This document shows positions 6,876 to 64,000 of a DNA stretch of 64,000 bases, piece by piece; positions within the stretch are counted from its first letter, which is position 1; every line of letters starts with the position of its first letter. The position numbers were made by a program, and so were the translations under genes. The DNA comes from Thermoanaerobaculia bacterium. GTDB lineage: Bacteria; Acidobacteriota; Thermoanaerobaculia; UBA5066; Gp7-AA6. The DNA lies in the NCBI GenBank assembly GCA_035498405.1, contig DATKAE010000011.1, positions 226 to 64,225 on the forward strand. The letters run 5' to 3'. The notes beneath the pieces are model-generated. The model was given only the letters and a program-made list of their open reading frames with translations. It was not told where the DNA came from and did no database searches.

Positions 6876-6951
6876 TGGTAGGCGCTAACGGGATCGAACC
6901 GTTGACCTCTACCGTGTGAAGGTAGCGCTCTTCCAGCTGAGCTAAGCGCCT
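6876..6951 (-). tRNA. tRNA-Val (anticodon CAC), CCA encoded
   Basis: Reverse complement reads AGGCGCT TA GCTC AGCTGGAA GAGC G CTACC TTCACAC GGTAG AGGTC AACGG TTCGATC CCGTT AGCGCCT A CCA. Full cloverleaf, 76 nt. Confidence 0.9.
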
Positions 6952-6969
6952 TCGCCTTTGAAACGAAGT

Positions 6970-7044
<75 letters not shown>

Positions 7045-7277
7045 TCCGAGTGTCCCGAGAAGTTCCTCGGGGGGCTACGGGCCGGGAGCCCGCGGGGCTT
7101 TTCGGGAAATCCGGGCCGCCTCGCGACCCGCCTTTCCTCATCCCGACCTTCGTCCCTGATTGAAAAAGAACACGCCGGCCCACGGAGCGCCGGAAAGGCC
7201 GGAAATTTAGCACAAAGCCGGGCGGCCGGCGAATCGGTCCCGGGCGGTTCGGTGTTAGGTTTTCTCGATGGCTTCCT

Positions 7278-7305
7278 TCCCTCGCCCCTCGCCCCTCGCC
7301 CCTGC
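7278..7305. repeat. tandem CCCTCGC heptad repeat (G-tracts on the minus strand) abutting the GT2 start codon
   Basis: tccctcgcccctcgcccctcgcccctgcccATG. The same heptad recurs at 9611-9640 and, as its complement GCGAGGG/GTGAGGG, at 37769-37813. Confidence 0.6.
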
Positions 7306-7307
7306 CC

Positions 7308-8312
7308 ATGAAGCTCGTTATTCAGATCCCGGCCTGGAACGAGGAGCAGTCGCTGCCGCAAACGCTGGCCTCCCTGCCGCGGCGTTTGGCGCCTTTTCGC
7401 GAGGTGGCGATTCTCGTCGTCGATGACGGCTCGACGGACGGCACCGCCGAGGCGGCCCTGACGGGCGCCGACCGACTGGTGCGGTTGCCCGGCCACGCCG
7501 GCCTCGCCGCAGCCTTCCGCGCGGGACTCGACGCCGCGCTCGATCTGGGCGCCGACGTGATCGTCAACCTCGACGCCGACGGGCAATATGACCCGGCCGA
7601 CATCCCCGCGCTGGTCGCGCCGATTCTTGCCGGCAAGGCCGACCTCGTGATTGGGGATCGCGGGCCGGGCACCCTGGCCCACTTCTCGCCAGCCAAGCGC
7701 CTGCTGCAGCGGCTCGGGAGCTGGGTCGTCCAGCAGGCGGCCGGAATCCGAGTCGCCGATGCGGCATCCGGATTCCGGGCCTTTTCGCGCGAGGCCGCGC
7801 GTCGGTTGAACGTGTTCTCGCGAATGACCTACACGCTGGAGACGCTCATCCAGGCCGGCTCGAAGGGATTGCGGGTGGCTTCCGTCCCCGTGCGCGCCCA
7901 CGAGACGCACCGGCGCTCGCGCCTGTTCGCCTCGGTTCCGCGATACGTCCTGGTCCAGGGCGCGAACATCCTTCGCATCACGGCGCTCTACAAGCCGCTC
8001 AAGTTCTTCTCGGCGGCGGCCGCGCTGTTTCTTCTCGCGGGCCTCGCGCTCGGCGCCCGCTACCTCTACTACTTCTTCTTCGTCACCGAGCGGGCCGGGG
8101 GACACGTCCAGTCGCTGATCCTCGCGGCCGTGCTGATCCTGGTCGGTGTGCTGACATTCCTGATCGCGCTCTTGGCCGACCTGGTTTCGATCAACCGGAT
8201 GCTTCTCGAGGAGATGAAGCTGCGGGAGACGGAGAAGACGGCCGCGGTCGCCCTGCCTGACGCCGACGCGCGCGGCCAGTCGAAGCCGCTCCCCCGAGAT
8301 CCTCGCGGCTGA
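7308..8312 (+). CDS. family 2 glycosyltransferase (dolichyl/polyprenyl-phosphate sugar transferase-like) with C-terminal TM segments
   Basis: IQIPAWNEE..., [10 protein letters not shown] and DADGQY motifs, with two hydrophobic C-terminal helices. Confidence 0.85.
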
Positions 8313-53842: not shown

Positions 53843-54363
53843 CGGGCCCTCACCGTGAGAGGGATGGCGATGACGCTCGTCGGCCCGGGCGCCAGTCGAG
53901 CCACTCTGACGCCAGGGAGTTCGGCGTGAAAGCCTGGTCACGGTGCGCGAGTCCCTGGCGGGCGATAGGATCTCTTCAGGAACCAGCACGATGACGCTCA
54001 GGGTCGGTTCGACCAACCCGCACGGATCGAGCCACGCCCTGCGCCCCGTGCGGCCGACGGGCTCGAGGTGGGTTCCCCAGACCGCCGTGACGACGTTTTC
54101 AACGGCGTGGAGTTCCTCGACAGCTCCCGTTCGACCGCAAACCATTGGGAAGATGGCCAGTGGCGGTACTTCATCGATGGCGATGGCCGAAAGTTCCTCG
54201 AAGGGATGGATCTGCGCGATATCTGAGCAGACTACCGGCGCCGGCGACGCTCGGACCAGCGCCGTAGCCGTCGATTGAGATCGAGAAGCGACGGACGCGC
54301 AGTTTCGACACGGCGTCTCTCTCCGGCCTTTTCGGGACAATCTTGATCGGTGCCTCTCGGGCC

Positions 54364-54433
54364 GCCTATCAGGCTCTGGCTCCGCCGCGAGCGACGCGGA
54401 GCGGAGGGAGTCCGCTGCGACGGCGGGTTAGGA
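54364..54433 (-). repeat. attC-like site A (degenerate, most distal)
   Basis: Plus strand: GCCTATC...ggagggagtccgctgcgacggcggGTTAGGA. The 3' arm is homologous to sites F and H (gagtccgctgc). It lies 12 nt after the thioesterase stop. Confidence 0.5.
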
Positions 54434-54445
54434 CGCCGCCTGCCG

Positions 54446-54871
54446 TCAGGACCGCTGCCCATCGATCAAGGAGTGGGCCCGGTCTCGGACGTCGCTCGGC
54501 AAGGCGCGAGCCCTTCGTGTCACGGTATCGAGGTGGACCGCAACGAGAACCGTCCTCGCGGCCACCGCTCCTGTTTCGTCGTTCTTCATCTCGTGAGCGA
54601 AGCGAATGGCCTTGTCCTTCACTTCGAGGATAGTCGACGAGACCGTGACCACATCACCGGGGTACAGCTCATGCTTGTATTCGATGTGCTGCTCGACACC
54701 CGCCATCCCGATGCTCTCGCTGCGCAGACGTGCTGGCGTAAGCCCCATGGCGGCGAAGAGCTGCCACGTCGCCTCATCGAATTTAGCTACGTACCACATG
54801 ACATTCATGTGCCCCATGTGGTCACACTGCGACGGGTAGACCGCTCCACGGTAGGTAACGAGGGCCGTCAC
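54446..54871 (-). CDS. 4HBT-family acyl-CoA thioesterase (YbgC-like hot-dog fold)
   Basis: Trimmed to a GTG overlapping the upstream stop (GTGA). VYPSQCDHMGHMNVMWYVAKFDEATWQLF is typical of 4HBT thioesterases. About 141 aa. Confidence 0.75.
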   Translation of the reverse strand: MTALVTYRGAVYPSQCDHMGHMNVMWYVAKFDEATWQLFAAMGLTPARLRSESIGMAGVEQHIEYKHELYPGDVVTVSSTILEVKDKAIRFAHEMKNDETGAVAARTVLVAVHLDTVTRRARALPSDVRDRAHSLIDGQRS

Positions 54872-55254
54872 GAGTCGGGGCCGGCTGAGTCGGCTTCGCC
54901 TGGCGCGTCGCCCAGGGGCGCGGGGGGCAGCGGCGTCGCGAAGAACCGAACCACCAGCACAATAAGCACCGTCATGACCGCCACCGTAAAGGCCAGGTTC
55001 CGCCCACGCCACAACCCCACGAACCATTCTCGAAACTCCTCCGCAAGGACATTCGCCTTTCCACCATAGAGCTCCAGGTCATGAACATATTTCTTCGTTT
55101 CGAGCGGATCGTAGCCAAGAGGATTGGGAGGCGGGGGACTGGCGCTGATGTAGATGATGATGGCGCCAGCGAAACCTGCCGCGAGGATCGCGGCGGTCAG
55201 GCGCCTGAGGCGTCGCTGCGACACGGGCGCTGGAGAGTTCGTGTCACCCACCAT
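54868..55254 (-). CDS. small membrane protein (2 TM), hypothetical
   Basis: Trimmed to MVGDTNSPAP... TM segments are LTAAILAAGFAGAIIIYI and LAFTVAVMTVLIVLVVRFF. Translationally coupled to the thioesterase. Confidence 0.5.
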   Translation of the reverse strand: MVGDTNSPAPVSQRRLRRLTAAILAAGFAGAIIIYISASPPPPNPLGYDPLETKKYVHDLELYGGKANVLAEEFREWFVGLWRGRNLAFTVAVMTVLIVLVVRFFATPLPPAPLGDAPGEADSAGPDS

Positions 55255-55382
55255 CCCTAGTGTAAAGCTCCGTCCGGTCCGTAGTTGAATGACCCTTCGG
55301 GGCTCGACTCGAACCATTCTCGGAGCCCGAGAATGCGCATGAGATCGTCGTCGCAACGCCTCGCTGCGGCGAGATCTGGAAC

Positions 55383-55470
55383 GCCTATGCCGATGTGGCC
55401 GATGAATCGAGTGCACCGCTTGCGGCGCGCAAGCACGCGAGTGACAGTCCGCCGCAACGCCATGTTAGGC
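55383..55470 (-). repeat. attC-like site B (one end degenerate)
   Basis: Plus strand: GCCTATG...gtccgccgcaacgccatGTTAGGC. The TAA stop of the VOC gene lies inside the minus-strand GCCTAAC box. Confidence 0.55.
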
Positions 55471-55917
55471 GGCGGTTTCGGGCGCGTTGGCTTTGGCATG
55501 GGTTACGATTTCGTACTTGATTCCTTCGGGGTCTTTGAAGAAGAACGCATAGTAGCCGGGTGGTGTGTATCCGGGATATTCCCTTGGCGGAGCGACGATG
55601 ATGGCGCCGATTGCCTCGATTTCGTGATGAAGGCGGTCGACCTCTGCTCGCGAGTCGGCCCGGAAAGCGAGGTGGCGAAGGGCGCCGGGCCTGCGCCGAT
55701 GAACGGCTTCTTGGCGAAGGGCGGTTCTAGGCGAGGAGAGAGCAAAGGAGAGCCGCTCGTGGCTGTATTCGATTACAAAGAAGTCGTGCTTTTCGATAAC
55801 GGAGCTGCTGCGGCTCTCTTTGCTGAATCCGAGAATCGGAAGCAACCGGTCATAAAACGGCGCTGCAATAGCCATATCGCGCACCGTTATCTGAATGTGA
55901 TCGATGATTGGTTTCAC
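55465..55917 (-). CDS. VOC-superfamily (glyoxalase/bleomycin-resistance/dioxygenase fold) protein
   Basis: 150 aa; IDHIQITVRDMAIAAPFYD...LRHLAFRA...YYAFFFKDPEGIKYEIV; GTG start. Confidence 0.8.
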   Translation of the reverse strand: MKPIIDHIQITVRDMAIAAPFYDRLLPILGFSKESRSSSVIEKHDFFVIEYSHERLSFALSSPRTALRQEAVHRRRPGALRHLAFRADSRAEVDRLHHEIEAIGAIIVAPPREYPGYTPPGYYAFFFKDPEGIKYEIVTHAKANAPETAA

Positions 55918-55968
55918 GTCGCTGGCAACCTTATCAATCTCGCCGTCACGACTCCCGCCGCCGGCTCA

Positions 55969-56094
55969 TCATCGGGGGGAACCGACCAAGCACTGCCTTC
56001 TCCCTGAGCAGTAGCTCTTGAGATGATGCCGCTCATCACAAGGTTGGCGAACGAGAAAATGCAGGAAGAGCAAGACCTGATTGAGACCCTTCAT
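55969..56094 (-). CDS. 41-codon ORF with strong Shine-Dalgarno in the VOC cassette leader (speculative)
   Basis: GGAGGA-6 nt-ATG. Translation: MKGLNQVLLFLHFLVRQPCDERHHLKSYCSGRRQCLVGSPR. Confidence 0.2.
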   Translation of the reverse strand: MKGLNQVLLFLHFLVRQPCDERHHLKSYCSGRRQCLVGSPR

Positions 56095-56138
56095 CGGTAT
56101 TCCTCCGATCAATGAGTCAGTCGCGTCACGACATGTCT

Positions 56139-56286
56139 GCCTAACGGGCTGCGCTTCAGCGGCGAACGCCAGTGCGGCCTCTGCCGCCGCAGATGCTCGA
56201 AGTGCCACATTGCCCTAACTCGAGTCCGCCTTTGGGATCGCACAGCCTACGAGCCACGTCAGGCCCAGCCAGGAAAATGCCTAGGC
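56139..56286 (-). repeat. attC-like site C (long, composite or rearranged)
   Basis: The plus strand starts with a perfect GCCTAACGGGCTGCGCTTCAGCGGCGA arm (56139-). A second CCCTAAC-tc-gagtccgcc element lies at 56213-56230. The site ends at GCCTAGGC, which contains the TAG stop of the reductase gene. Confidence 0.4.
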
Positions 56287-56859
56287 CGCCGCCATTCCTC
56301 GCACCTCGTAGCGAAGCTCAACCACGCCGCTCTCGTAGGCTTTGACCTCCGCCAGGTGCAGGGCGACGTCTCTGTCGAGCTTCTCGAAGAATGGGATCCC
56401 ATCACCAATCAAGATCGGGAGGATCGAATAGCGAAGTTCGTCGGCTAGCCCGAGACGAAGACATTCCCCGGAGACTGCACCGCCTCCAACAAACCAGATG
56501 GTACGGAACGCGGGCCGCAGGCGACCATTCACGAACTGCGCGAGATCGCCTGAGTAGAACTCGACCGTATCCCGGGTCCGCGGCAGCTCGCGACGAGTGA
56601 GGACGAAGGTGGGTTTGTCGCCGTACGACCACCGCAGCCCTTTGGCCTCAAAACTCAACGCGGTCTCATATGTTCGCGATCCCATGACGTAGCAATCGAT
56701 CGTCTTGAGGAACGCTTCGACGGATCCTGGGTCCATGGTGTCCCCGCCTACGAATTCGTCTGAGGTGTCGAGCCAGTCGACGCTCCCATCCTTTCGAGCG
56801 ATGAAGCCATCGAGGCTCGCCGCCATGTGGATCGTCACGCGAGAATCAGCGTTTACCAT
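56281..56859 (-). CDS. RibD C-terminal-domain / dihydrofolate-reductase-like family protein
   Basis: 192 aa; MAASLDGFIARKDGSVDWL...YVMGSRTYE...WFVGGGAVSGECLRLGLADEL. Confidence 0.8.
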   Translation of the reverse strand: MVNADSRVTIHMAASLDGFIARKDGSVDWLDTSDEFVGGDTMDPGSVEAFLKTIDCYVMGSRTYETALSFEAKGLRWSYGDKPTFVLTRRELPRTRDTVEFYSGDLAQFVNGRLRPAFRTIWFVGGGAVSGECLRLGLADELRYSILPILIGDGIPFFEKLDRDVALHLAEVKAYESGVVELRYEVRGMAAA

Positions 56860-56993
56860 GGTTTCGCCCTGACGCCGGTGGCGACGGCTCGTGCCAGTCT
56901 TCGAGAGACTCGCTCCCGGTGGCTCTTGAGTACATGACGTGCGAATCTACGCCGGGCAAAGCAGGCACCGAAACCAACCCCCAGCCCGAGTCC

Positions 56994-57069
56994 GCCTAAC
57001 GGGCGGCGCGTCGGCGGCGAGCGAAGAGCCGAAGGTGATGAGCGAGTTCGTTGCACGCGCGTGTTCGGC
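56994..57069 (-). repeat. attC-like site D (76 bp)
   Basis: GCCTAACgggcggcgcgtcggcggcgagcgaagagccgaaggtgatgagcgagttcgttgcacgcgcgtGTTCGGC. 65/76 positions are identical to site H by hand alignment. It lies 1 nt after the methyltransferase stop. Confidence 0.8.
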
Positions 57070-57070
57070 C

Positions 57071-57539
57071 TCACCCAACTTTCGAGCCTACGACCAGCGG
57101 CTGGAAGAATCTGTCGTCGATCCGCCGAACGGCTCGAAACCCCGCCTCATTCATGAGGTCGACGAGGAGCGAAACGGGTATCGCGTAATACTGGGATCTC
57201 ATCACATGGACGGCGCAATCGGACCCGCCAGCGTCCCCGAGAAAATACATGGACAGATCGTAAATCGAGTCGTGAACTTCCCACACCTGAAAGACCAGGA
57301 AACGTCGCCTGCCATCGGTTCTCGGCCCGTAGGGTACGACCTTCGTCCCGACGCACTCCGCAGGATAGGAGTCGCGAACCGACATCAGAACTCCGCCGCT
57401 CGGAGTAGGGCAACGGTACATCTCCCCAAAAACCACGCGGATTTCCTCCATCGGAAAGCAGATGCGGAACCGAGTTATCGCACGCGATTACCAAGTCGAA
57501 GGGTTCCCGATAGGTCGAGGAAAGGGTCCTCAGGTGCAA
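57071..57539 (-). pseudogene. class I SAM-dependent methyltransferase, 5'-truncated and frameshifted
   Basis: Frame 1 gives ...EPFDLVIACDNSVPHLLSD. Frame 2 continues EEIRVVFGEMYRCPTPSGGVLM...YYAIPVSLLVDLMNEAGF. The shift lies in a G-run near 57447-57452. The SAM-binding motif I region is absent, and the ORF begins at the edge of repeat copy 1. Confidence 0.6.
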
Positions 57540-57700
57540 AGCTCGGCGGAGAAAAGCTCGGAGGCAGGTCAGCCTTTCTCGAGGGTTGACGTGGTTTGGC
57601 GGGGCCGACGGAACGCGAAGCCGAAGGCTCCGCCCCTAAACCAAGGCGGCTGAAGAGGCGAGGATCTCGTTGGCCGCGTCCTTGTCCGTGCCGGCTCCCG
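57533..57700 (-). repeat. direct repeat copy 1 with a degenerate tRNA 3'-end-like core
   Basis: Aligns with 60548-60712 at roughly three quarters identity by eye. Core on the minus strand: ccttcggcttcgcgttccgtcggccccgcca. Confidence 0.6.
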
Positions 57701-58112
57701 ACGAGCCATCGCCGAGTGCTTGCTGTCCCCCCCGAAGGAGTGGAGGCTCCCCGGGTTGCGCTCGTCGCGACCTGGGGGGGCAGGGCTGGCGAAAAGATGG
57801 TCCGGTCCATCGGGCCTCCCACCCGGCCAGCTCAAGATCGACCGACCTTCGACCCGCTGCGCAAGGACGTGAGGTGCCAGAGACTCGTCGCCGGCGGGAA
57901 GTAGGCCCGCCTCGTTCCCTCTCAAGCGCGGCGTCCCTCGCTATCGCTCGAGATGACTCGATACATGTACGCACGATCGCCCCCGGCGGCTTTCCGCGCC
58001 AATCCGGGGCAATTGTCCCAGGTGATCACTCCGAATCCGGCCGATTCGGGACGTAGTTCCCATTGTTGGGCGGCGTTGCCGGCGCCATCGTAGGGTCGAA
58101 AGGAGAGATCAC

Positions 58113-59027
58113 ATGCTTTCACACGACTACTCGTATGCCAACGTCCTGCAGAACTCGCTCAAGGTCGCCTGGACGGAGCGCCAGGTTCTCGAAGGCAGAG
58201 ACTTCGACTACTCCAAGCGGTTTCTTCCCAATCGACTCTCGGGAGTGGACGAGATTCGCTGCCTCAACGACCGCGACAAGCTCAAGCTGAATCAGATCAT
58301 GGGCAACGCGTATTGCCACATCTTCGCCTACGTGGAGGAGTACATCATTCCGCAGGCCCTGGAAGCCGCCCAGAAGGACATTTATGGCGACGAGACCCGG
58401 TTGCGTACGCTGCTGCGCTTTGCCGAGGACGAGTCGAAGCACCAGGAACTGTTTCGACGCTCGACGGCGCTGTTCGAGAAAGGCTTCGGAGTCAAGTGTG
58501 GCCTGATCCCCGGCCGTGAGGAGGTCGCCCGCGTGGTGCTCAGCAAGTCGCGGCTCTGCAGCTACCTGCTGACCAGCATGATCGAGTGGTTCACGCAGTT
58601 GCATTACGTCGAGCACGTGCGCGATCGGGGCGAGCTCGACGGACTGTTTCGTGACCTGGTCAAGTATCACTGGATGGACGAGGCGCAGCACGCGAAGATC
58701 GATTCGCTCCTGATCGACGAGATCACCCGGGAGATCGGCGAGGAGGATCGCGAGGCGGCCGTCGACGAGCTGCTCGAGCTCGGCGGCGCGGTCGACGGAC
58801 TGCTGTCGCAGCAGGCCGACCTGGATCTCGAGAGCCTCGAGACTGCCATCGGACGTACGCTTTCGGAGCAAGAAAAAGCGGAGATCAAGCGCAATACCCA
58901 TCGCGCCTACCGCTGGACGTTTCTCGTCTCCGGACTGGAGCATCCGAATTTCGTCCGGATCGTGAGCGAGCTGACCCGCAGAGGGCCGGCGAAGCTCGAG
59001 GCCGTGGCCCGGGCGCTGTCGAACTGA
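58113..59027 (+). CDS. ferritin-like diiron oxygenase (AurF / diiron N-oxygenase-like family)
   Basis: 304 aa, all-helical, with two E...ExxH pairs (FAYVEE / AEDESKHQELF and MIEWF / MDEAQHAKI). Confidence 0.65.
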   Translation: MLSHDYSYANVLQNSLKVAWTERQVLEGRDFDYSKRFLPNRLSGVDEIRCLNDRDKLKLNQIMGNAYCHIFAYVEEYIIPQALEAAQKDIYGDETRLRTLLRFAEDESKHQELFRRSTALFEKGFGVKCGLIPGREEVARVVLSKSRLCSYLLTSMIEWFTQLHYVEHVRDRGELDGLFRDLVKYHWMDEAQHAKIDSLLIDEITREIGEEDREAAVDELLELGGAVDGLLSQQADLDLESLETAIGRTLSEQEKAEIKRNTHRAYRWTFLVSGLEHPNFVRIVSELTRRGPAKLEAVARALSN

Positions 59028-59132
59028 AGGGCGCATGAAGCTGACGGGCGCGTCAGCCTTGCGGCTGTCGTCCTGGCGGCTGGCTGCGAGGCCTGCCGGC
59101 CGCCAGCGCGCCCGCAGCTTTTGCGTCGCCCG

Positions 59133-60206
59133 CTAGGGCCGGAACCCCCGGTCTCGCGCGAAGACGATCGCCTGCGCCCGGGTCCACACGCCGAGCTTGT
59201 CGAAGAGGTTCGAGATGTGGTTGCGGACGGTCTTCTCGCTGATCGTGAGGCGCTCGCCGATGTCGGCGTTGGCGAGCCCCTCGGTGATCAGCACCAGGAC
59301 TTCGCGCTCGCGAGCCGTGAGGCGGGCGAAGGCGGAGTCCTCTTCGCGCGGGGCCGGGAGGCCCGCGAAATCGAGGACGACTTCCCGAAAGCGCTCCCAC
59401 GCCGGCTCGTCCTCGAGAAGGATGTGGTTGCGGGAGTCCAACTCGACGAACTGTGCTCCTGGGATTCCGGCGGCCAGTTGGCGTGCTTCCGAGATGGGAC
59501 AGACCTCGTCATCGCGGGAGTGAATGACGAGCGTCGGCGCCGTGATCGCGCCGAGCAAGCTGGAAACGTCGACCTTCGAGCGAGCCTCGAGGAGCCTCGC
59601 CGCCATTTCGCCGCTGCTGGTCCGGCGGCACAGCTCGTTGTACCAGCCGATTTGCGCTTCGCTGGCTCCGGGAATGAAGCGCGACGTGAAGACCTGGCGG
59701 AACACCGGATTCTCTTTTCCCCAGCCGACCCTCATCAGCTCCAGCATCGCGCGGTACTGGCGCTCGCCCACCGAATCGCCGCGCTGCGCCCAGCCGCGGG
59801 CGTAGCCACCGTAGAGAACCATGCGCGAGACCCGCTCCGGATGGCGCGCGGCGTAGGCGACGCAGATCGCTGCGCCGGACGAGATCCCCAGCAGCGCCAA
59901 CGGCTCCTCGACTCCCGAGGCGGCCACCACGTCCTCGAGATCTCCAAACCAGCGGTCGAACGATAGCTCGTCGACGTCTCGGTCCGTCAGCCCGCAGCCG
60001 CGTTCGTCCCAGCGCAGGAATCGGAAGTGGTCGCCAAAGAAGCGGATCCAGTGCCCCCAGACCGGGCTCTCCAGTTCGTACTCGAGATGGCTCAGCCAGT
60101 TCGCCGCCTTGACCAGGACCGGGCCCGCGCCGATTTCGGCCCAGGCGAGCTGCACACCATCTTCCGTGCGCAGGTAGCGGACGCGCTGACGAAGTTTCGT
60201 GTCCAT
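59133..60206 (-). CDS. alpha/beta-hydrolase domain fused to a LuxR-type HTH (transcriptional regulator)
   Basis: GISSGA (GxSxG) hydrolase core and a C-terminal LTAREREVLVLITEGLANADIGERLTISEKTVRNHISNLFDKLGV. Confidence 0.8.
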   Translation of the reverse strand: MDTKLRQRVRYLRTEDGVQLAWAEIGAGPVLVKAANWLSHLEYELESPVWGHWIRFFGDHFRFLRWDERGCGLTDRDVDELSFDRWFGDLEDVVAASGVEEPLALLGISSGAAICVAYAARHPERVSRMVLYGGYARGWAQRGDSVGERQYRAMLELMRVGWGKENPVFRQVFTSRFIPGASEAQIGWYNELCRRTSSGEMAARLLEARSKVDVSSLLGAITAPTLVIHSRDDEVCPISEARQLAAGIPGAQFVELDSRNHILLEDEPAWERFREVVLDFAGLPAPREEDSAFARLTAREREVLVLITEGLANADIGERLTISEKTVRNHISNLFDKLGVWTRAQAIVFARDRGFRP

Positions 60207-60547
60207 CGCCGTCGGACCCCGAATTGTAGCTATATGGGCGAAGTACTCGCCGTCCCGATCGGTCCTCCTTTGGGTCTACCAGACGCCGGAATCAGCCGAT
60301 ACTTGACGCGCTGCATTCTCAGTCCCGGTCCGCGGCGCGTCCAGTGAAGAAGTGATAGTCCGCGTCCAATGGCCCGCAGCCCGCGTGACATGCTCCCTGC
60401 CGAGAGGTTCGATTCCAGGCTGCCCTCCGTCCGCTGGAGCCCGGGGTCTCAGAACCACATGCTTGGCCGTGTCATTGTCCGTGTTCTGTCCGTGAAGCCA
60501 CGTCCGCTGACGTTCATCCAGCCGACAGGCGACGCGATGTCAGGAAT

Positions 60548-60712
60548 GGCGCAAAGCACGGCGGAGAAAGGCTCGGAACCACATCGACCCTTGTCGAGGG
60601 TTCACGTGGATATGGCGGGGCCGACGGGACTCGAACCCGAAGGCTTCGCAGCTAACTCAAGGCGGCTGAAGGGGTGATGCCTCCGTTGGCCGTGTCTTTG
60701 TCAGTGTCTGTT
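60548..60712 (-). repeat. direct repeat copy 2 with tRNA 3'-end-like core (T-arm, acceptor strand, CCA)
   Basis: Minus strand: CCTTCGGGTTCGAGTCCCGTCGGCCCCGCCA (60643-60613). This is a GGTTCGAGTCC T-loop with a 7-nt acceptor strand, a G discriminator and CCA. No D arm or anticodon arm lies upstream. Confidence 0.6.
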
Positions 60713-60770
60713 CGCCGTCGATAGCGGGCGCGGCTCCCCGAACAAGGTCCCTTCGCGACGATTAGCGGAG

Positions 60771-61973
60771 GTGCTAGGCTTCAGACATTCCTTGAGCGGC
60801 ACACCGACTCAACCCACTCCTCCGCCACCTGCGCCGAACACGCCGACGACCGAGCCGGTGCCTCCGACATCTAGCAGCGCTCGTTCCTTCCAGATTACGG
60901 GTGGGGCCCCTCGACTGCTTCTGGGCTGGTGGATTTTCAGGAAATGGGCTTGGCGGAACACCGCGGGAGCCGTTTACGTCGCCGTGCTCTATTTCGTGGC
61001 CGCTGTCTTCTGGGGCGTCGCATCTGGCAACCCATATCGACCACCTCAATGGGTTTACTCGGGCCTACCGCGTAGCGCTGGTGTCGCAATCGTCTGGCTG
61101 CTCTTAATCTGCGAGCTTCAGCTAACCCAATTCATTGGGTTCCTCTTCTACGTGGCATTCTTCTGGATCTGGCTCCCGTTTCATCTCGCGGGAGCACGTT
61201 CCCAGCGACGCAAAGCAGCCGCTGGACAGACCAATCGAAGCACCAAGCTTTCAACGAGTCTTCGGCTCTGGCACGTTGCTGGTCTCGCGCTTTTGCTCGC
61301 CGTGGTCGTTTTCTGGCCGCTGCCCTCTCGGCTTTTCGCAGGAATTGCGGCCCTGGTCGGGTTAATTCCGGCGGCGCTACTGATCAAGCGGGCCTGGGTA
61401 GTGGCGATGTCTCCTGCTGATTGGGTGGTCGGATTGAAGGGCCGGGCGGCGGACGCCTATCAGAGATGGAAGGCGGAATCGGAGAGGGTAGAAGCAAGAG
61501 GGAATGTGCTAGCAGCGAGCGCAACAGTCCTCCGGGCACCAGCCAAGGTCGTCAGATTCCTCGAAAAACCAATCAACTATCGCGTCGTCCTTCGTACAAG
61601 CGCGATCTTCTACTTTTTCGGGCTCATCGCGATTCTTCTGCTCTACTTGGGCTTTGAGGCGGCGCTTTGGTTGCGCGCCCTAGCGGACGAAAAGGAGCTA
61701 GCCGCTGCGTTCGGGGGAGGAAGCCTTCCCAACATTGTGCTGATGTCTCTGACCTGCTCGTTGGGAATCGTGGGTCAATGGTTGATTAATGTTTCGCGCC
61801 TCGGCATGCCGGGTAATGTGGTCATCGTGACAAGCAGACTTATCGGACTGGTTGGGTCTGGCATCCTCATAGCCGGCTTCCTCTCCCACTACTCGACGGA
61901 CGTGTCCAGGTTAGAGCGACCCTCTCCGCCGAGCAAACCCGACGGCGGCGAGTCCGGTGCGGCCACAGGTTAG
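60771..61973 (+). CDS. polytopic membrane protein (about 8 TM), no recognisable family
   Basis: 400-aa ORF on the strand opposite to the cassettes, with a Pro/Thr-rich N-terminus. The start is uncertain (no in-frame ATG near the 5' end). The last ~10 codons and the TAG stop are encoded by attC-like site E. Confidence 0.5.
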   Translation: MLGFRHSLSGTPTQPTPPPPAPNTPTTEPVPPTSSSARSFQITGGAPRLLLGWWIFRKWAWRNTAGAVYVAVLYFVAAVFWGVASGNPYRPPQWVYSGLPRSAGVAIVWLLLICELQLTQFIGFLFYVAFFWIWLPFHLAGARSQRRKAAAGQTNRSTKLSTSLRLWHVAGLALLLAVVVFWPLPSRLFAGIAALVGLIPAALLIKRAWVVAMSPADWVVGLKGRAADAYQRWKAESERVEARGNVLAASATVLRAPAKVVRFLEKPINYRVVLRTSAIFYFFGLIAILLLYLGFEAALWLRALADEKELAAAFGGGSLPNIVLMSLTCSLGIVGQWLINVSRLGMPGNVVIVTSRLIGLVGSGILIAGFLSHYSTDVSRLERPSPPSKPDGGESGAATG

Positions 61974-61975
61974 GG
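61912..61975 (-). repeat. attC-like site E (half site)
   Basis: Plus strand: ...agcgacc...ggcggcgagtccggtgcggccacagGTTAGGG. It matches the corresponding arm of site G (gaggcggcgagtccggtgcaacggcatGTTAGGC). The partner arm and box are missing. Confidence 0.45.
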
Positions 61976-61998
61976 CGACACGTGGCAATTCCGCTGCA

Positions 61999-62607
61999 TC
62001 AGGGCACAAGCTTCTCCTCGGATCTCTGCTCGCTACCCAATAGAACACCGCGGTTCTTCTCAAAGACAGCCCGGACCTTGGAACCGAGCTGCTTCCGGTT
62101 CCGAACGAATTGAACATTCTTGTGGATGTCGAAGTGAATCTGTGTACGAAGCTTCGGATCCAGTACGCTATTCTCGCTCGCCACGTAGATTACCGGTTTA
62201 CCCGCTCCCTCGGCATACCCCGCTTCAAAATAGCAAGAGGGTCGCTCGTCGGTGAGATCCGCCACCAGGAATTGCGCCCGCTCTATCTCGTCCTTGATCC
62301 GCCGTACTAATTCATCGAGAGGGTATTCCTTGTCGATTCGGATGCCGAAGCAATCGAGTTGATTGAGAACCGTGTTGATGACTTCGAACCTGGCTTCGTA
62401 TTCCGCGTAGACCCGCTGCTCCTCCTGCGTCCCCTCCTCCTCACCCTGGATCGGCATGATCACGAAGACTCTGGTCTTCGTCTGAGACAAACCACGCTTG
62501 GCTTTGGCCTCGAAAGTCGGGAAAAGATTCCGTTTTCTTGCGCTTGAACCGTTCAAACGGTATCCCACGCTTCTTGTCGTATCGCTCCAGCGTGCGGTAG
62601 ATCTCAA
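61999..62607 (-). CDS. nucleoside 2-deoxyribosyltransferase-like / TIR-like flavodoxin-fold domain protein
   Basis: RVFVIMPIQ (strand 1)...FLVADLTDERPSCYFEAGYAEGAGKPVIYV matches the ADxx..NxNVxxExGxAxxxGKPVI signature of the NDT-like fold. The true start is unclear: TTG or ATG near 62480-62457, or a fusion with the upstream ORF. Confidence 0.6.
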   Translation of the reverse strand: MRSTARWSDTTRSVGYRLNGSSARKRNLFPTFEAKAKRGLSQTKTRVFVIMPIQGEEEGTQEEQRVYAEYEARFEVINTVLNQLDCFGIRIDKEYPLDELVRRIKDEIERAQFLVADLTDERPSCYFEAGYAEGAGKPVIYVASENSVLDPKLRTQIHFDIHKNVQFVRNRKQLGSKVRAVFEKNRGVLLGSEQRSEEKLVP

Positions 62608-62770
62608 GATCCGCGACCGGAACCGTCTGGACCTTCTTGCCCCAACTCGTCTGGATAGTCCCGGTCTGAAGGTAGGGAATCACGTAGTCGGATAGCACCT
62701 GTGCTTCCGTACGGTTGTACACCAGCTTTGTCTTGTTGCTGCGAAGTGCTAGAACGTGGAAGAACTGCAT
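62441..62770 (-). CDS. hypothetical ORF; possible N-terminal domain of the NDT-like protein
   Basis: MQFFHVLALRSNKTKLVYNRTEAQVLSDYVIPYLQTGTIQTSWGKKVQTVPVADLEIYRT... The final ~25 codons overlap the NDT-like ORF in another frame. Confidence 0.45.
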   Translation of the reverse strand: MQFFHVLALRSNKTKLVYNRTEAQVLSDYVIPYLQTGTIQTSWGKKVQTVPVADLEIYRTLERYDKKRGIPFERFKRKKTESFPDFRGQSQAWFVSDEDQSLRDHADPG

Positions 62771-62785
62771 TGGGTCATCATCCTC

Positions 62786-62830
62786 CGCAGCGGCGAGTGG
62801 AAGCGAGTCCGCTGCACGCGCGTGTTAGAC
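62786..62830 (-). repeat. attC-like site F (truncated)
   Basis: Plus strand: ccgcagcggcgagtggaagcgagtccgctgcacgcgcgtGTTAGAC. It is identical to site H over gagtccgctgcacgcgcgtgtta. The far arm and box are replaced 15 nt before the next ATG. Confidence 0.55.
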
Positions 62831-63136
62831 GGCCTTTGATGCCTGATCATGGTGACGTGCCCTGCGCAGGAAGGCAAAGGTTGGCGCAGCCACCACTAAG
62901 ACCACCAGCGCCAGAATGGTCGTGTACAGAACTAGGAACCCAAAAGTCTCTTGAGCCGAGGCATCGTGCGGATCTGAGCGCATCACGAGTCTGAAGAGTA
63001 GGCCATCAAGCCAACCAAGCATGCGACCACCCAGGAGACGTGCGTCAAGCTCGAAGAGAGCTGTCAGAACTAGCCAAGAGGCTGAAGCCACCGCCAAGAC
63101 GCCAGTGGTCTTGCGGATAGCGGCGGTGAGCTTCAC
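62825..63136 (-). CDS. small membrane protein (2 TM), hypothetical cassette ORF
   Basis: 103 aa; GTG start 14 nt after site G; the TAA stop lies inside the GTCTAAC box of site F. Confidence 0.55.
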   Translation of the reverse strand: MKLTAAIRKTTGVLAVASASWLVLTALFELDARLLGGRMLGWLDGLLFRLVMRSDPHDASAQETFGFLVLYTTILALVVLVVAAPTFAFLRRARHHDQASKAV

Positions 63137-63150
63137 GGCCTCTCCCAGCC

Positions 63151-63226
63151 GTCTAACGGGCGGCGCATCACCTGCGAGCGACCAAGCGAAGCGAGGCGGC
63201 GAGTCCGGTGCAACGGCATGTTAGGC
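63151..63226 (-). repeat. attC-like site G (76 bp)
   Basis: GTCTAACgggcggcgcatcacctgcgagcgaccaagcgaagcgaggcggcgagtccggtgcaacggcatGTTAGGC. The stop of the 146-aa ORF lies inside the minus-strand GCCTAAC box. Confidence 0.8.
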
Positions 63227-63661
63227 GCCACTCCCATTCGCAGTATCAGTTGTTCGTGTCTTCAACAATTCGTGGCGTTTGAAGGTCGCTCTCGACGCCC
63301 GCTGCGCGATGAGAAGTATTCCGACCCACATAAGAAGTTGCCAAAGGCCGTAGGTTCGGCTGCCGACCAGAACCCAGGTGGCCATTGCGGCGGTCGCGAT
63401 CAGCAGGAACACGGCGACAACCCGCAAGCGAGTTAGCCAGAGAAGGGCAGCGGGGATTGCCAAGGCTGCAGCCGCCGCTGCTGCCACCCATCCGGCGCGC
63501 CGATTTGCCACGATGACAAGCAACGCAACGAGCAGAATAGCGACACTCATGTCGCGGAGGACGAGACCCGCCTCTGTCGCGTTATCAAGCGGGCCGAAGA
63601 AGCGAATTGCCGGGCCTCGGTAACCCTGCGCTCTCTCGAGCTCTTGCTGTCTCTCAAACAC
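63221..63661 (-). CDS. small membrane protein (4 TM), hypothetical cassette ORF
   Basis: 146 aa; GTG start 21 nt after site H; four hydrophobic helices. Confidence 0.55.
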   Translation of the reverse strand: MFERQQELERAQGYRGPAIRFFGPLDNATEAGLVLRDMSVAILLVALLVIVANRRAGWVAAAAAAALAIPAALLWLTRLRVVAVFLLIATAAMATWVLVGSRTYGLWQLLMWVGILLIAQRASRATFKRHELLKTRTTDTANGSGA

Positions 63662-63682
63662 CGACGTGCCCTAAATCCTGGC

Positions 63683-63758
63683 GCTTAACGGGCTGCGCGT
63701 CAGCGGCGAGTGAGGAGCCGAAGGCGACGAACGAGTCCGCTGCACGCGCGTGTTAGGC
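63683..63758 (-). repeat. attC-like site H (76 bp, best preserved)
   Basis: GCTTAACgggctGCGCGTCAGCGGcgagtgaggagccgaaggcgacgaacgagtCCGCTGcACGCGCgtGTTAGGC. Paired stems are GCGCGT/ACGCGC and CAGCGG/CCGCTG, with one unpaired base between them. Confidence 0.85.
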
Positions 63759-63771
63759 AGCGCTCCGAGAA

Positions 63772-64000
63772 TCACCGTTTCAGCCTGGTGGCCTGAATCG
63801 TTACTGTTGTTTTAAGCTCGGATGCGGTTGGACCAGCCTTCAGGATCTGGGTAAAAGACGTGGGAGTGATGTTGGTGAAGACCTCCTGGCGGACAAGTCT
63901 CTTCCCCTTCTCCTCAGTCTCCTCGGTATAGATGAGGCTGTTGCCTTCCCATTTCGCAACGTTCTTGGAAAGCTGGCAGCCGCCCGGGTCATGGCTGGCG
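63772..64000 (-). CDS. partial cassette ORF (3' end), DUF1579-like
   Basis: Hand translation of the only open minus frame: ...ASHDPGGCQLSKNVAKWEGNSLIYTEETEEKGKRLVRQEVFTNITPTSFTQILKAGPTASELKTTVTIQATRLKR*. The stop at 63772 is 13 nt before site H. The 5' end is beyond the window. Confidence 0.55.
   Translation of the reverse strand, partial: ASHDPGGCQLSKNVAKWEGNSLIYTEETEEKGKRLVRQEVFTNITPTSFTQILKAGPTASELKTTVTIQATRLKR

Follow-up and report, generated by a model that had tools for sequence, protein, structure and literature searches.

The DNA examined here is a 64,000-nucleotide stretch (hereafter the window) of contig DATKAE010000011.1 from a Thermoanaerobaculia bacterium (Acidobacteriota), and it corresponds to positions 674-64673 of a 66,227-bp ENA metagenome contig. 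The window encodes thrS, infB, pnp and degP and hence represents chromosomal backbone; its polynucleotide phosphorylase is 100% identical to a protein of an NCBI Thermoanaerobaculia metagenome-assembled genome (MAG). From about 54.2 kb onwards, short open reading frames (ORFs) on the minus strand are followed by copies of a single repeat, an arrangement that we interpret as part of an integron gene-cassette array in which the repeats are the attC recombination sites. A first-pass annotation, made from the sequence alone, had reported eight such sites, and eight copies or part-copies of the repeat were indeed recovered between 54.36 and 63.76 kb, all on the minus strand. They are given below from the window's right-hand end toward the chromosome; bit scores are those of the covariance model R1 (see below), and closure is the probability that the R box pairs in the folded bottom strand.

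63683-63758, minus strand: attC A, intact, 76 bp; R'' GCCTAAC, R' GTTAAGC; 98.2 bits, E 1e-26
63151-63226, minus strand: attC B, complete, 76 bp; R' GTTAGAC, several mismatched stem pairs; 69.2 bits, closure 0.17
62774-62830, minus strand: attC C, R''-L''-short loop-L' kept, R' end lost; exact 5' arm match; 21.1 bits
61925-61975, minus strand: attC D, 5' half alone (CCCTAAC...CGGACTCG and part of the loop); exact 5' arm match at 61951-61973, no R1 match
56994-57069, minus strand: attC E, complete, 76 bp; R'' GCCGAAC, R' GTTAGGC; 80.7 bits, closure 0.036
56139-56260, minus strand: attC F, 3' arm and R' GTTAGGC intact (56164-56139; 3' arm match with 0 mismatches); 5' side retains GGCGGACTCG with no recognisable R'', loop long; 16.2 bits for 56178-56139
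55420-55470, minus strand: attC G, 5' half alone; exact 5' arm match at 55446-55468, no R1 match
54364-54433, minus strand: attC H, last recognisable site, 70 bp; R' mutated to GATAGGC (GTT to GAT); 22.4 bits, closure 0.028

The core boxes and the three 76-bp lengths quoted in the first-pass annotation proved correct. Its description of all eight as imperfect palindromes holds for A, B and E, the three sites that are complete at 76 bp (98, 69 and 81 bits), whereas C, D, F, G and H are damaged. Inverted RYYYAAC and GTTRRRY core boxes are fully present in A, B and three further sites beyond the window (61-97 bp); E deviates from RYYYAAC at position 4 of R'', and the five damaged sites retain the boxes in part. 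The clustering is far above chance. Six matches to the 5' arm pattern CTAACN8GCNNCGGACT were found against 0.05 expected from shuffles, and four to the 3' arm pattern ending in CCGTTAGRC against 0.06 expected, all of them on the minus strand between 54.4 and 63.8 kb. Model R1, built from a seed of 56 sites taken mostly from other genomes and run with filters off, matched six sites in the window (A, B, C, E, F and H) and nothing better than E 0.08 in positions 1-54 kb. The dispersal between core genes that had been named as the refuting case is thus not seen in this window. A scan of the window against Rfam 15, at gathering thresholds and at E<=10, returned no attC or other relevant family.

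Each site lies directly behind a short ORF of the same orientation, and the cassette plan is a minus-strand ORF, its leader very short or absent, and behind it an attC of the phylum-typical 76-bp family:

63772-64000, minus strand: C-terminal part of a 200-204 aa ORF that starts beyond the window and is closed by site A (stop at 63772); no Pfam match
63221-63661, minus strand: 146-aa ORF, predicted membrane protein, 21-nt leader; no Pfam match
62825-63136, minus strand: 103-aa ORF, 14-nt leader, stop TAA within R''; no Pfam match
61999-62770, minus strand: two overlapping ORFs (109 aa; 152-202 aa), the second with a TIR/NDT-like C-terminal domain
57071-57539, minus strand: 5'-truncated, frameshifted ORF; no Pfam match, even with the frames stitched
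56281-56859, minus strand: RibD_C-family reductase, 192 aa; Pfam 45.7 bits (cut-off 24.1)
55465-55917, minus strand: VOC/glyoxalase protein, 150 aa; Pfam Glyoxalase 41.1 bits (cut-off 20.6)
54446-55254, minus strand: 128-aa membrane ORF and 4HBT thioesterase with stop/start overlap and no attC between them; Pfam 4HBT_2 88.3 bits
54171-54311, minus strand: ORF remnant starting MSKLRVRRFSISIDGYGAGP, directly past site H; 46 aa, no Pfam match

The two short leaders of 14 and 21 nt had been measured correctly, as had the position of the stop codons, which fall within R'' in three cassettes and 1-23 nt ahead of it in the others. As to cargo, Pfam bears out the VOC and RibD_C assignments, but the proteins called DUF1579-like and methyltransferase are without a Pfam match, and the NDT-like call is weak: the second ORF at 61999-62770 scores 23.3 bits against Nuc_deoxyrib_tr, below the cut-off of 28.8. 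The same ORF matches a PADLOC TIR effector model (E 2.7e-9), a sequence match that hints at an anti-phage defence cassette; the two overlapping ORFs are possibly one frameshifted gene. The 4HBT thioesterase cassette had been overlooked, and so had the fact that 57.54-61.93 kb is not cassette DNA, to which we return below. We assume from the family that the cassettes would be promoterless.

Several cassettes recur in other arrays. The RibD_C cassette shares 82% nucleotide identity with a cassette of another Acidobacteriota array (L025), and the 4HBT thioesterase 84.5% amino-acid identity with one in a Thermoanaerobaculia array (L044), in both cases with different neighbours. A cassette with a 95-aa ORF has 33 homologue clusters, one of them at 94% identity in yet another array (L245). 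The same cassette in different arrays, as expected of independently mobile units, is therefore seen for RibD_C, 4HBT and the 95-aa ORF. For the partial ORF upstream, near the contig end, no homologues were found. The remnant at 54171-54311 is 81-83% identical in nucleotide sequence to stretches in two Acidobacteriota array loci and probably represents what is left of the N-terminus of a RibD_C-like cassette that has decayed; together with the VOC-like fragment at 55257-55420, it extends the array remnant to about 54.2 kb. L245 showed no integrase, and at 6951-7714 it carries a reverse-oriented Gp49-family pair, probably a toxin-antitoxin cassette.

Conservation of the repeat follows a hairpin. 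Across the 56 diverse sites, which share a mean column identity of 88%, 84.9% of cells are paired and compensatory changes are seen at 10 pairs; at column pair 13:61, for instance, 26 sites have C-G and 25 have G-C. None of 500 shuffles reached the observed values, and slid controls were 24-41% paired. From the outside inwards, a 7-bp R box is followed by a spacer with 2 nt facing 5 nt, then by two stem segments of 6 bp each and finally by a variable loop, the stem segments being parted by single bulged bases on the R''/L'' arm, 6 bp apart. Length varies in the central loop only, giving sites of 61, 76 and 97 bp in this array. When folded as DNA, the plus strand yields the attC shape for A and for the sites labelled A', I and J, with a bulged T and C 6 bp apart; for A the canonical hairpin is the minimum-free-energy structure, with an R-box closure probability of 0.53, while B, E and H fold poorly. 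The family hairpin thus matches the published attC anatomy of extrahelical bases, an unpaired central spacer and a variable terminal structure (PMC5371416). In the upper stem, pyrimidine-pyrimidine mismatches are kept in 39-51 of the 56 sites (column pairs 25:51, 26:50, 29:47 and 30:46 of alignment A2). These are conserved non-pairs and not decay; the pairs flanking them covary.

G+C-rich hairpins behind ORFs, with folding energies that are unremarkable site by site, might also have nothing to do with integrons and be transcription terminators or intergenic palindromes of the REP/BIME kind. We regard this explanation as barely conceivable. The other 54 kb of core chromosome, with thrS, infB and pnp, hold no copies; a single orientation is kept; the core boxes are conserved while loop length varies; and no T-run follows. 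Moreover, in nine related genomes the arrays of this repeat adjoin integron-integrase homologues, of which NCBIfam TIGR02249 confirms six.

These relatives emerged when the 5' arm pattern was searched in 8-kb stretches of species-representative genomes. Same-strand arrays occur in at least 119 genome stretches, 103 of the 119 labelled Acidobacteriota, with up to 15 same-strand copies per 8-kb stretch. One array spans about 50 kb, and tiles over 128-184 kb of one contig all carry sites. The family is very uniform: 289 of the 346 sites extracted from the 119 stretches are 76 bp long, and of 236 distinct site sequences, 216 have GCCTAAC as R'' and 207 have GTTAGGC as R'. Outside Acidobacteriota, the 5' arm was found, mostly in single copies, in MAGs of Planctomycetota, Gemmatimonadota, Latescibacterota, Methylomirabilales, Nitrospiria, Chloroflexota and Proteobacteria (stretches L012, L016, L023, L026, L033, L034, L050, L054, L058, L067, L093, L095, L099, L110, L117 and L119), which could reflect either inter-phylum cassette transfer or binning contamination.

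With IntI1 as the query, tblastn detected full-length IntI homologues, 44-53% identical to the query, in nine related stretches (L005, L010, L013, L042, L048, L049, L060, L084 and L109). All six that were scanned pass TIGR02249 'integron integrase' over the whole profile, with scores of 432-467 bits (cut-off 265). In all nine loci, intI immediately precedes the attC array and is encoded on the strand of the cassettes. A Haliangiales MAG tile (L012) has a partial IntI hit and a single attC match on opposite strands, the classical divergent layout.

Clustering, covariation, length variation confined to the loop, integrase-adjacent relatives and recurring cassettes thus agree, and the attC and gene-cassette reading put forward in the first-pass annotation is upheld. 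The repeats are real attC recombination sites. We put a probability of roughly 0.9 on the conclusion that an integron-type gene-cassette array in a Thermoanaerobaculia chromosome has its distal, chromosome-proximal end at 54.2-64.0 kb. The host is a soil bacterium, and arrays of this kind are common and already described in Acidobacteriota. An assembly chimera is ruled out, as contigs from three other samples are colinear with the window at 99.5-100% identity, the longest extending 138 nt further. The source contig itself continues for 1.55 kb past the window and terminates within the array; in this tail, three more intact attC sites (76, 61 and 97 bp) each follow a small minus-strand ORF.

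Several observations weigh against this conclusion. Five of the eight sites in the window are incomplete, being half-sites or mutated; the folding energies of single sites (A, B and E) are no better than those of shuffled sequences (z -0.6 to +0.6); and model R1 was built from this very attC family, with three of its 56 seed sequences being sites of the window. The cassette order is identical in four assemblies from different samples, so that no ongoing shuffling is seen, and a gap of 5.7-6.1 kb would split the region into two clusters under the 4-kb rule of IntegronFinder (PMC4889954). Finally, the sequence in hand contains no integrase, attI or Pc promoter for this array, and the contig ends within it. 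In agreement with what had been noted before, a six-frame hmmsearch with the IntI profile found no tyrosine recombinase at E<=10 in the window and the 1.55-kb tail, and tblastn found none there either.

Arrays with no integrase close by form an established class (Cury et al. 2016, PMC4889954), and the present sites could form such a cluster of attC sites (CALIN), split off by rearrangement or left as a relic after loss of intI. The sequence in hand has two or more attC sites and lacks an integrase, as in a CALIN, but the contig stops within the array. The 65.5 kb of contig without intI, the decay of the distal sites, the 4.4-kb insert that already breaks the array and the general frequency of such elements (PMC4889954) speak for this explanation. 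On the other hand, the three sites at the contig end are as well formed as the integrase-adjacent sites of relatives (72-103 bits, closure 0.86-0.94), and the contig, together with two of the three contigs from the other samples, ends within the array, as attC and cassette repeats make short-read assemblies do. We therefore see a CALIN as a real possibility that falls short of an even chance. Among 14 related tiles with 3 kb or more of site-free DNA ahead of an array, only eight show an IntI homologue within 3 kb, a proportion that counts in favour of a CALIN and yet lets us lean, on balance, toward an intI adjacent to the present array. By analogy with the relatives, the integrase would be expected beyond the contig's right-hand end.

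If the distal end of an integron is indeed what the window contains, its sites would work as the family suggests. The plus strand, here the bottom strand, would fold into an imperfect hairpin whose R box spans 7 bp, whose spacer is asymmetric and unpaired, and whose L stem, bearing two single bulges 6 bp apart, leads into a variable terminal loop. The integron integrase IntI would recognise the shape of this hairpin and cut at the conserved G/TT of R'. Cassettes might thereby be excised as circles through attC x attC recombination and re-inserted at attI beside the integrase, where a platform promoter would express them. In sedentary chromosomal integrons, attC bottom strands have been reported on the leading-strand template (PMC5371416). 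The plus-strand GC skew is mostly negative over the backbone, from which the attC bottom strands would here, too, fall on the leading-strand template, a weak inference from 64 kb.

The predicted folding of the bottom strand fades along the array. From the contig end to site H, the closure probability of the bottom-strand R box runs 0.86, 0.94, 0.92, 0.53, 0.17, 0.036 and 0.028, against 0.91 for integrase-adjacent sites of relatives; the first three values belong to the sites nearest the contig end, which score 72-103 bits. Sites are intact at the contig end and progressively mutated or deleted toward the chromosome. As a consequence, neighbouring cassettes have fused there and excision is no longer possible. 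Fusion by deletion is indicated by half-sites D and G, by the N-terminal fragment of a second VOC-like ORF (55257-55420) to which G is fused, and by the ORF pair at 54446-55254 that has no attC between its members.

The array is moreover interrupted. Between the 5'-truncated cassette ORF and half-site D, which forms the right-hand junction, lies DNA without any attC match:

57540-61924: non-cassette insert splitting the array, about 4.4 kb
60771-61973, plus strand: 400-aa membrane ORF
60548-60721, minus strand: repeat copy 1, with a 75-nt arm, a 28-nt 3' end of tRNA-Asp(GTC) including CCA, and about 65 nt resembling sequence downstream of tRNA-Asp
59133-60206, minus strand: 357-aa alpha/beta-hydrolase-LuxR protein
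58113-59027, plus strand: 304-aa ORF
57533-57704, minus strand: repeat copy 2, about 79% identical to copy 1, abutting the 5'-truncated cassette ORF

G+C content rises to 0.69 at 59-60 kb, against 0.55-0.61 in the cassettes, and the gene order of the insert recurs at 99.5-100% identity in the assemblies of the three other samples. A gap of more than 4 kb, the genome-like G+C content of the 357-aa gene (0.69) and tRNA-Asp fragments followed by sequence like that past an intact tRNA-Asp in metagenome contig L215 could mean that native chromosome parts two independent attC clusters, one at 54.4-57.1 kb and the other from 61.9 kb onwards. We consider this less likely than not, since both borders of the gap cut through cassette parts (half-site D and the 5'-truncated ORF), strand and site family are common to both sides, and an intact tRNA-Asp is lacking. 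One array split by an insert remains our preferred explanation.

The two direct repeats bound a 2.85-kb block with the 357-aa and 304-aa genes. A 23-nt pattern derived from the tRNA-Asp fragment occurs in at least 119 metagenome stretches, and for 40 of 48 scanned loci the pattern falls on the 3' end of a tRNA-Asp gene. The downstream part of the repeat resembles the region past the intact tRNA-Asp of L215, and the upstream arm is similar to an orphan fragment junction of another metagenome contig; a two-block pattern had no match in metagenome contigs. The tRNA-Asp relics resemble attR-type scars and probably stem from integrative elements that target tRNA-Asp. Neither an intact tRNA-Asp nor an integrase (six-frame IntI profile search, window and contig tail) accompanies them, and the fragments are relics at best.

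We may speculate that a genomic island inserted at tRNA-Asp carries the proximal array together with its unseen integrase. If true, Acidobacteriota would have an integron that is island-borne and potentially mobile; we judge this quite improbable. The nine related integrons have no tRNA gene beside intI and hence give no support for a conserved tRNA-Asp location. In a weaker version, tRNA-targeting elements may insert into cassette arrays and break them up.

Other interpretations of the 165-nt repeat were rejected. As a tmRNA or tRNA gene it is found neither by ARAGORN nor in Rfam, its acceptor arm is without G3:U70, and it holds just the last 28 nt of tRNA-Asp. As a structured RNA, the plus-strand consensus folds at -56 kcal/mol, yet the two copies offer a single compensatory pair. 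A 22-nt motif, TTGGCCGYGTCNTTGTCNGTG on the plus strand, is present in three copies (60463-60484, 60686-60707 and 57670-57691) and could be a protein-binding site; an ACGGACA-rich stretch similar to it follows the intact tRNA-Asp in L215. In a 1.3-kb contig from another sample (L001), the same 357-aa gene is found at 99.3% identity, and the upstream sequence diverges 23 nt before the ATG (L001 1-217 against window about 60229), which makes the junction near 60229 polymorphic between populations. The upstream part of L001 holds a decayed remnant resembling attC, as well as the C-terminal end of a RibD_C-like ORF; a pairing of this C-terminus with the N-terminal remnant at 54.3 kb was considered and dropped, the fragments being too short to tell. 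Away from the array, two neighbouring tRNA-Val genes (anticodons CAC and GAC) lie at 6876-7044, beside thrS.

Ghaly et al. 2021 (PMC8352920) have already gathered the chromosomal attC sites of Acidobacteria and built a model of them as a type specific to that taxon; taxonomy suggests that the present family is identical with it. Like the sedentary chromosomal integrons treated in the same work (PMC8352920), the system combines a chromosomal array, highly homogeneous attC sites and cargo mostly of unknown function, with arrays of tens of kb in relatives. Unlike those integrons, the window comprises a decayed and interrupted distal end only. In 'atypical' integrons of the Treponema denticola type, intI is transcribed toward attI and the cassettes (PMC3607928). 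The nine related Acidobacteriota loci share this layout, with intI upstream of and co-oriented with the cassettes, but differ from the Treponema type in phylum and attC sequence, and the layout is that of the relatives and not of this contig.

Canonical attC sites of mobile integrons, such as that of aadA7, are alike in their R'' (RYYYAAC) and R' (GTTRRRY) boxes, their unpaired central spacer and their variable terminal loop, and their R''/L'' arm likewise has two extrahelical bases spaced about 6 bp. Compared with these canonical sites, the bottom-strand bulges here are C and T rather than G and T, the spacer has 5 nt against 2 nt, and the upper stem keeps its conserved pyrimidine-pyrimidine mismatches.

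The understanding of integrons as such is unchanged by this locus. It adds one more chromosomal cassette array in a phylum in which such arrays are evidently abundant, as more than 100 stretches share the site type. Its value is mainly descriptive, in that the end of a chromosomal array displays a gradient from intact to dead attC sites accompanied by cassette fusion. The locus also shows an array split by foreign DNA, and it documents a very uniform 76-bp attC family, alongside which relatives carry an integrase that has the orientation of the cassettes.

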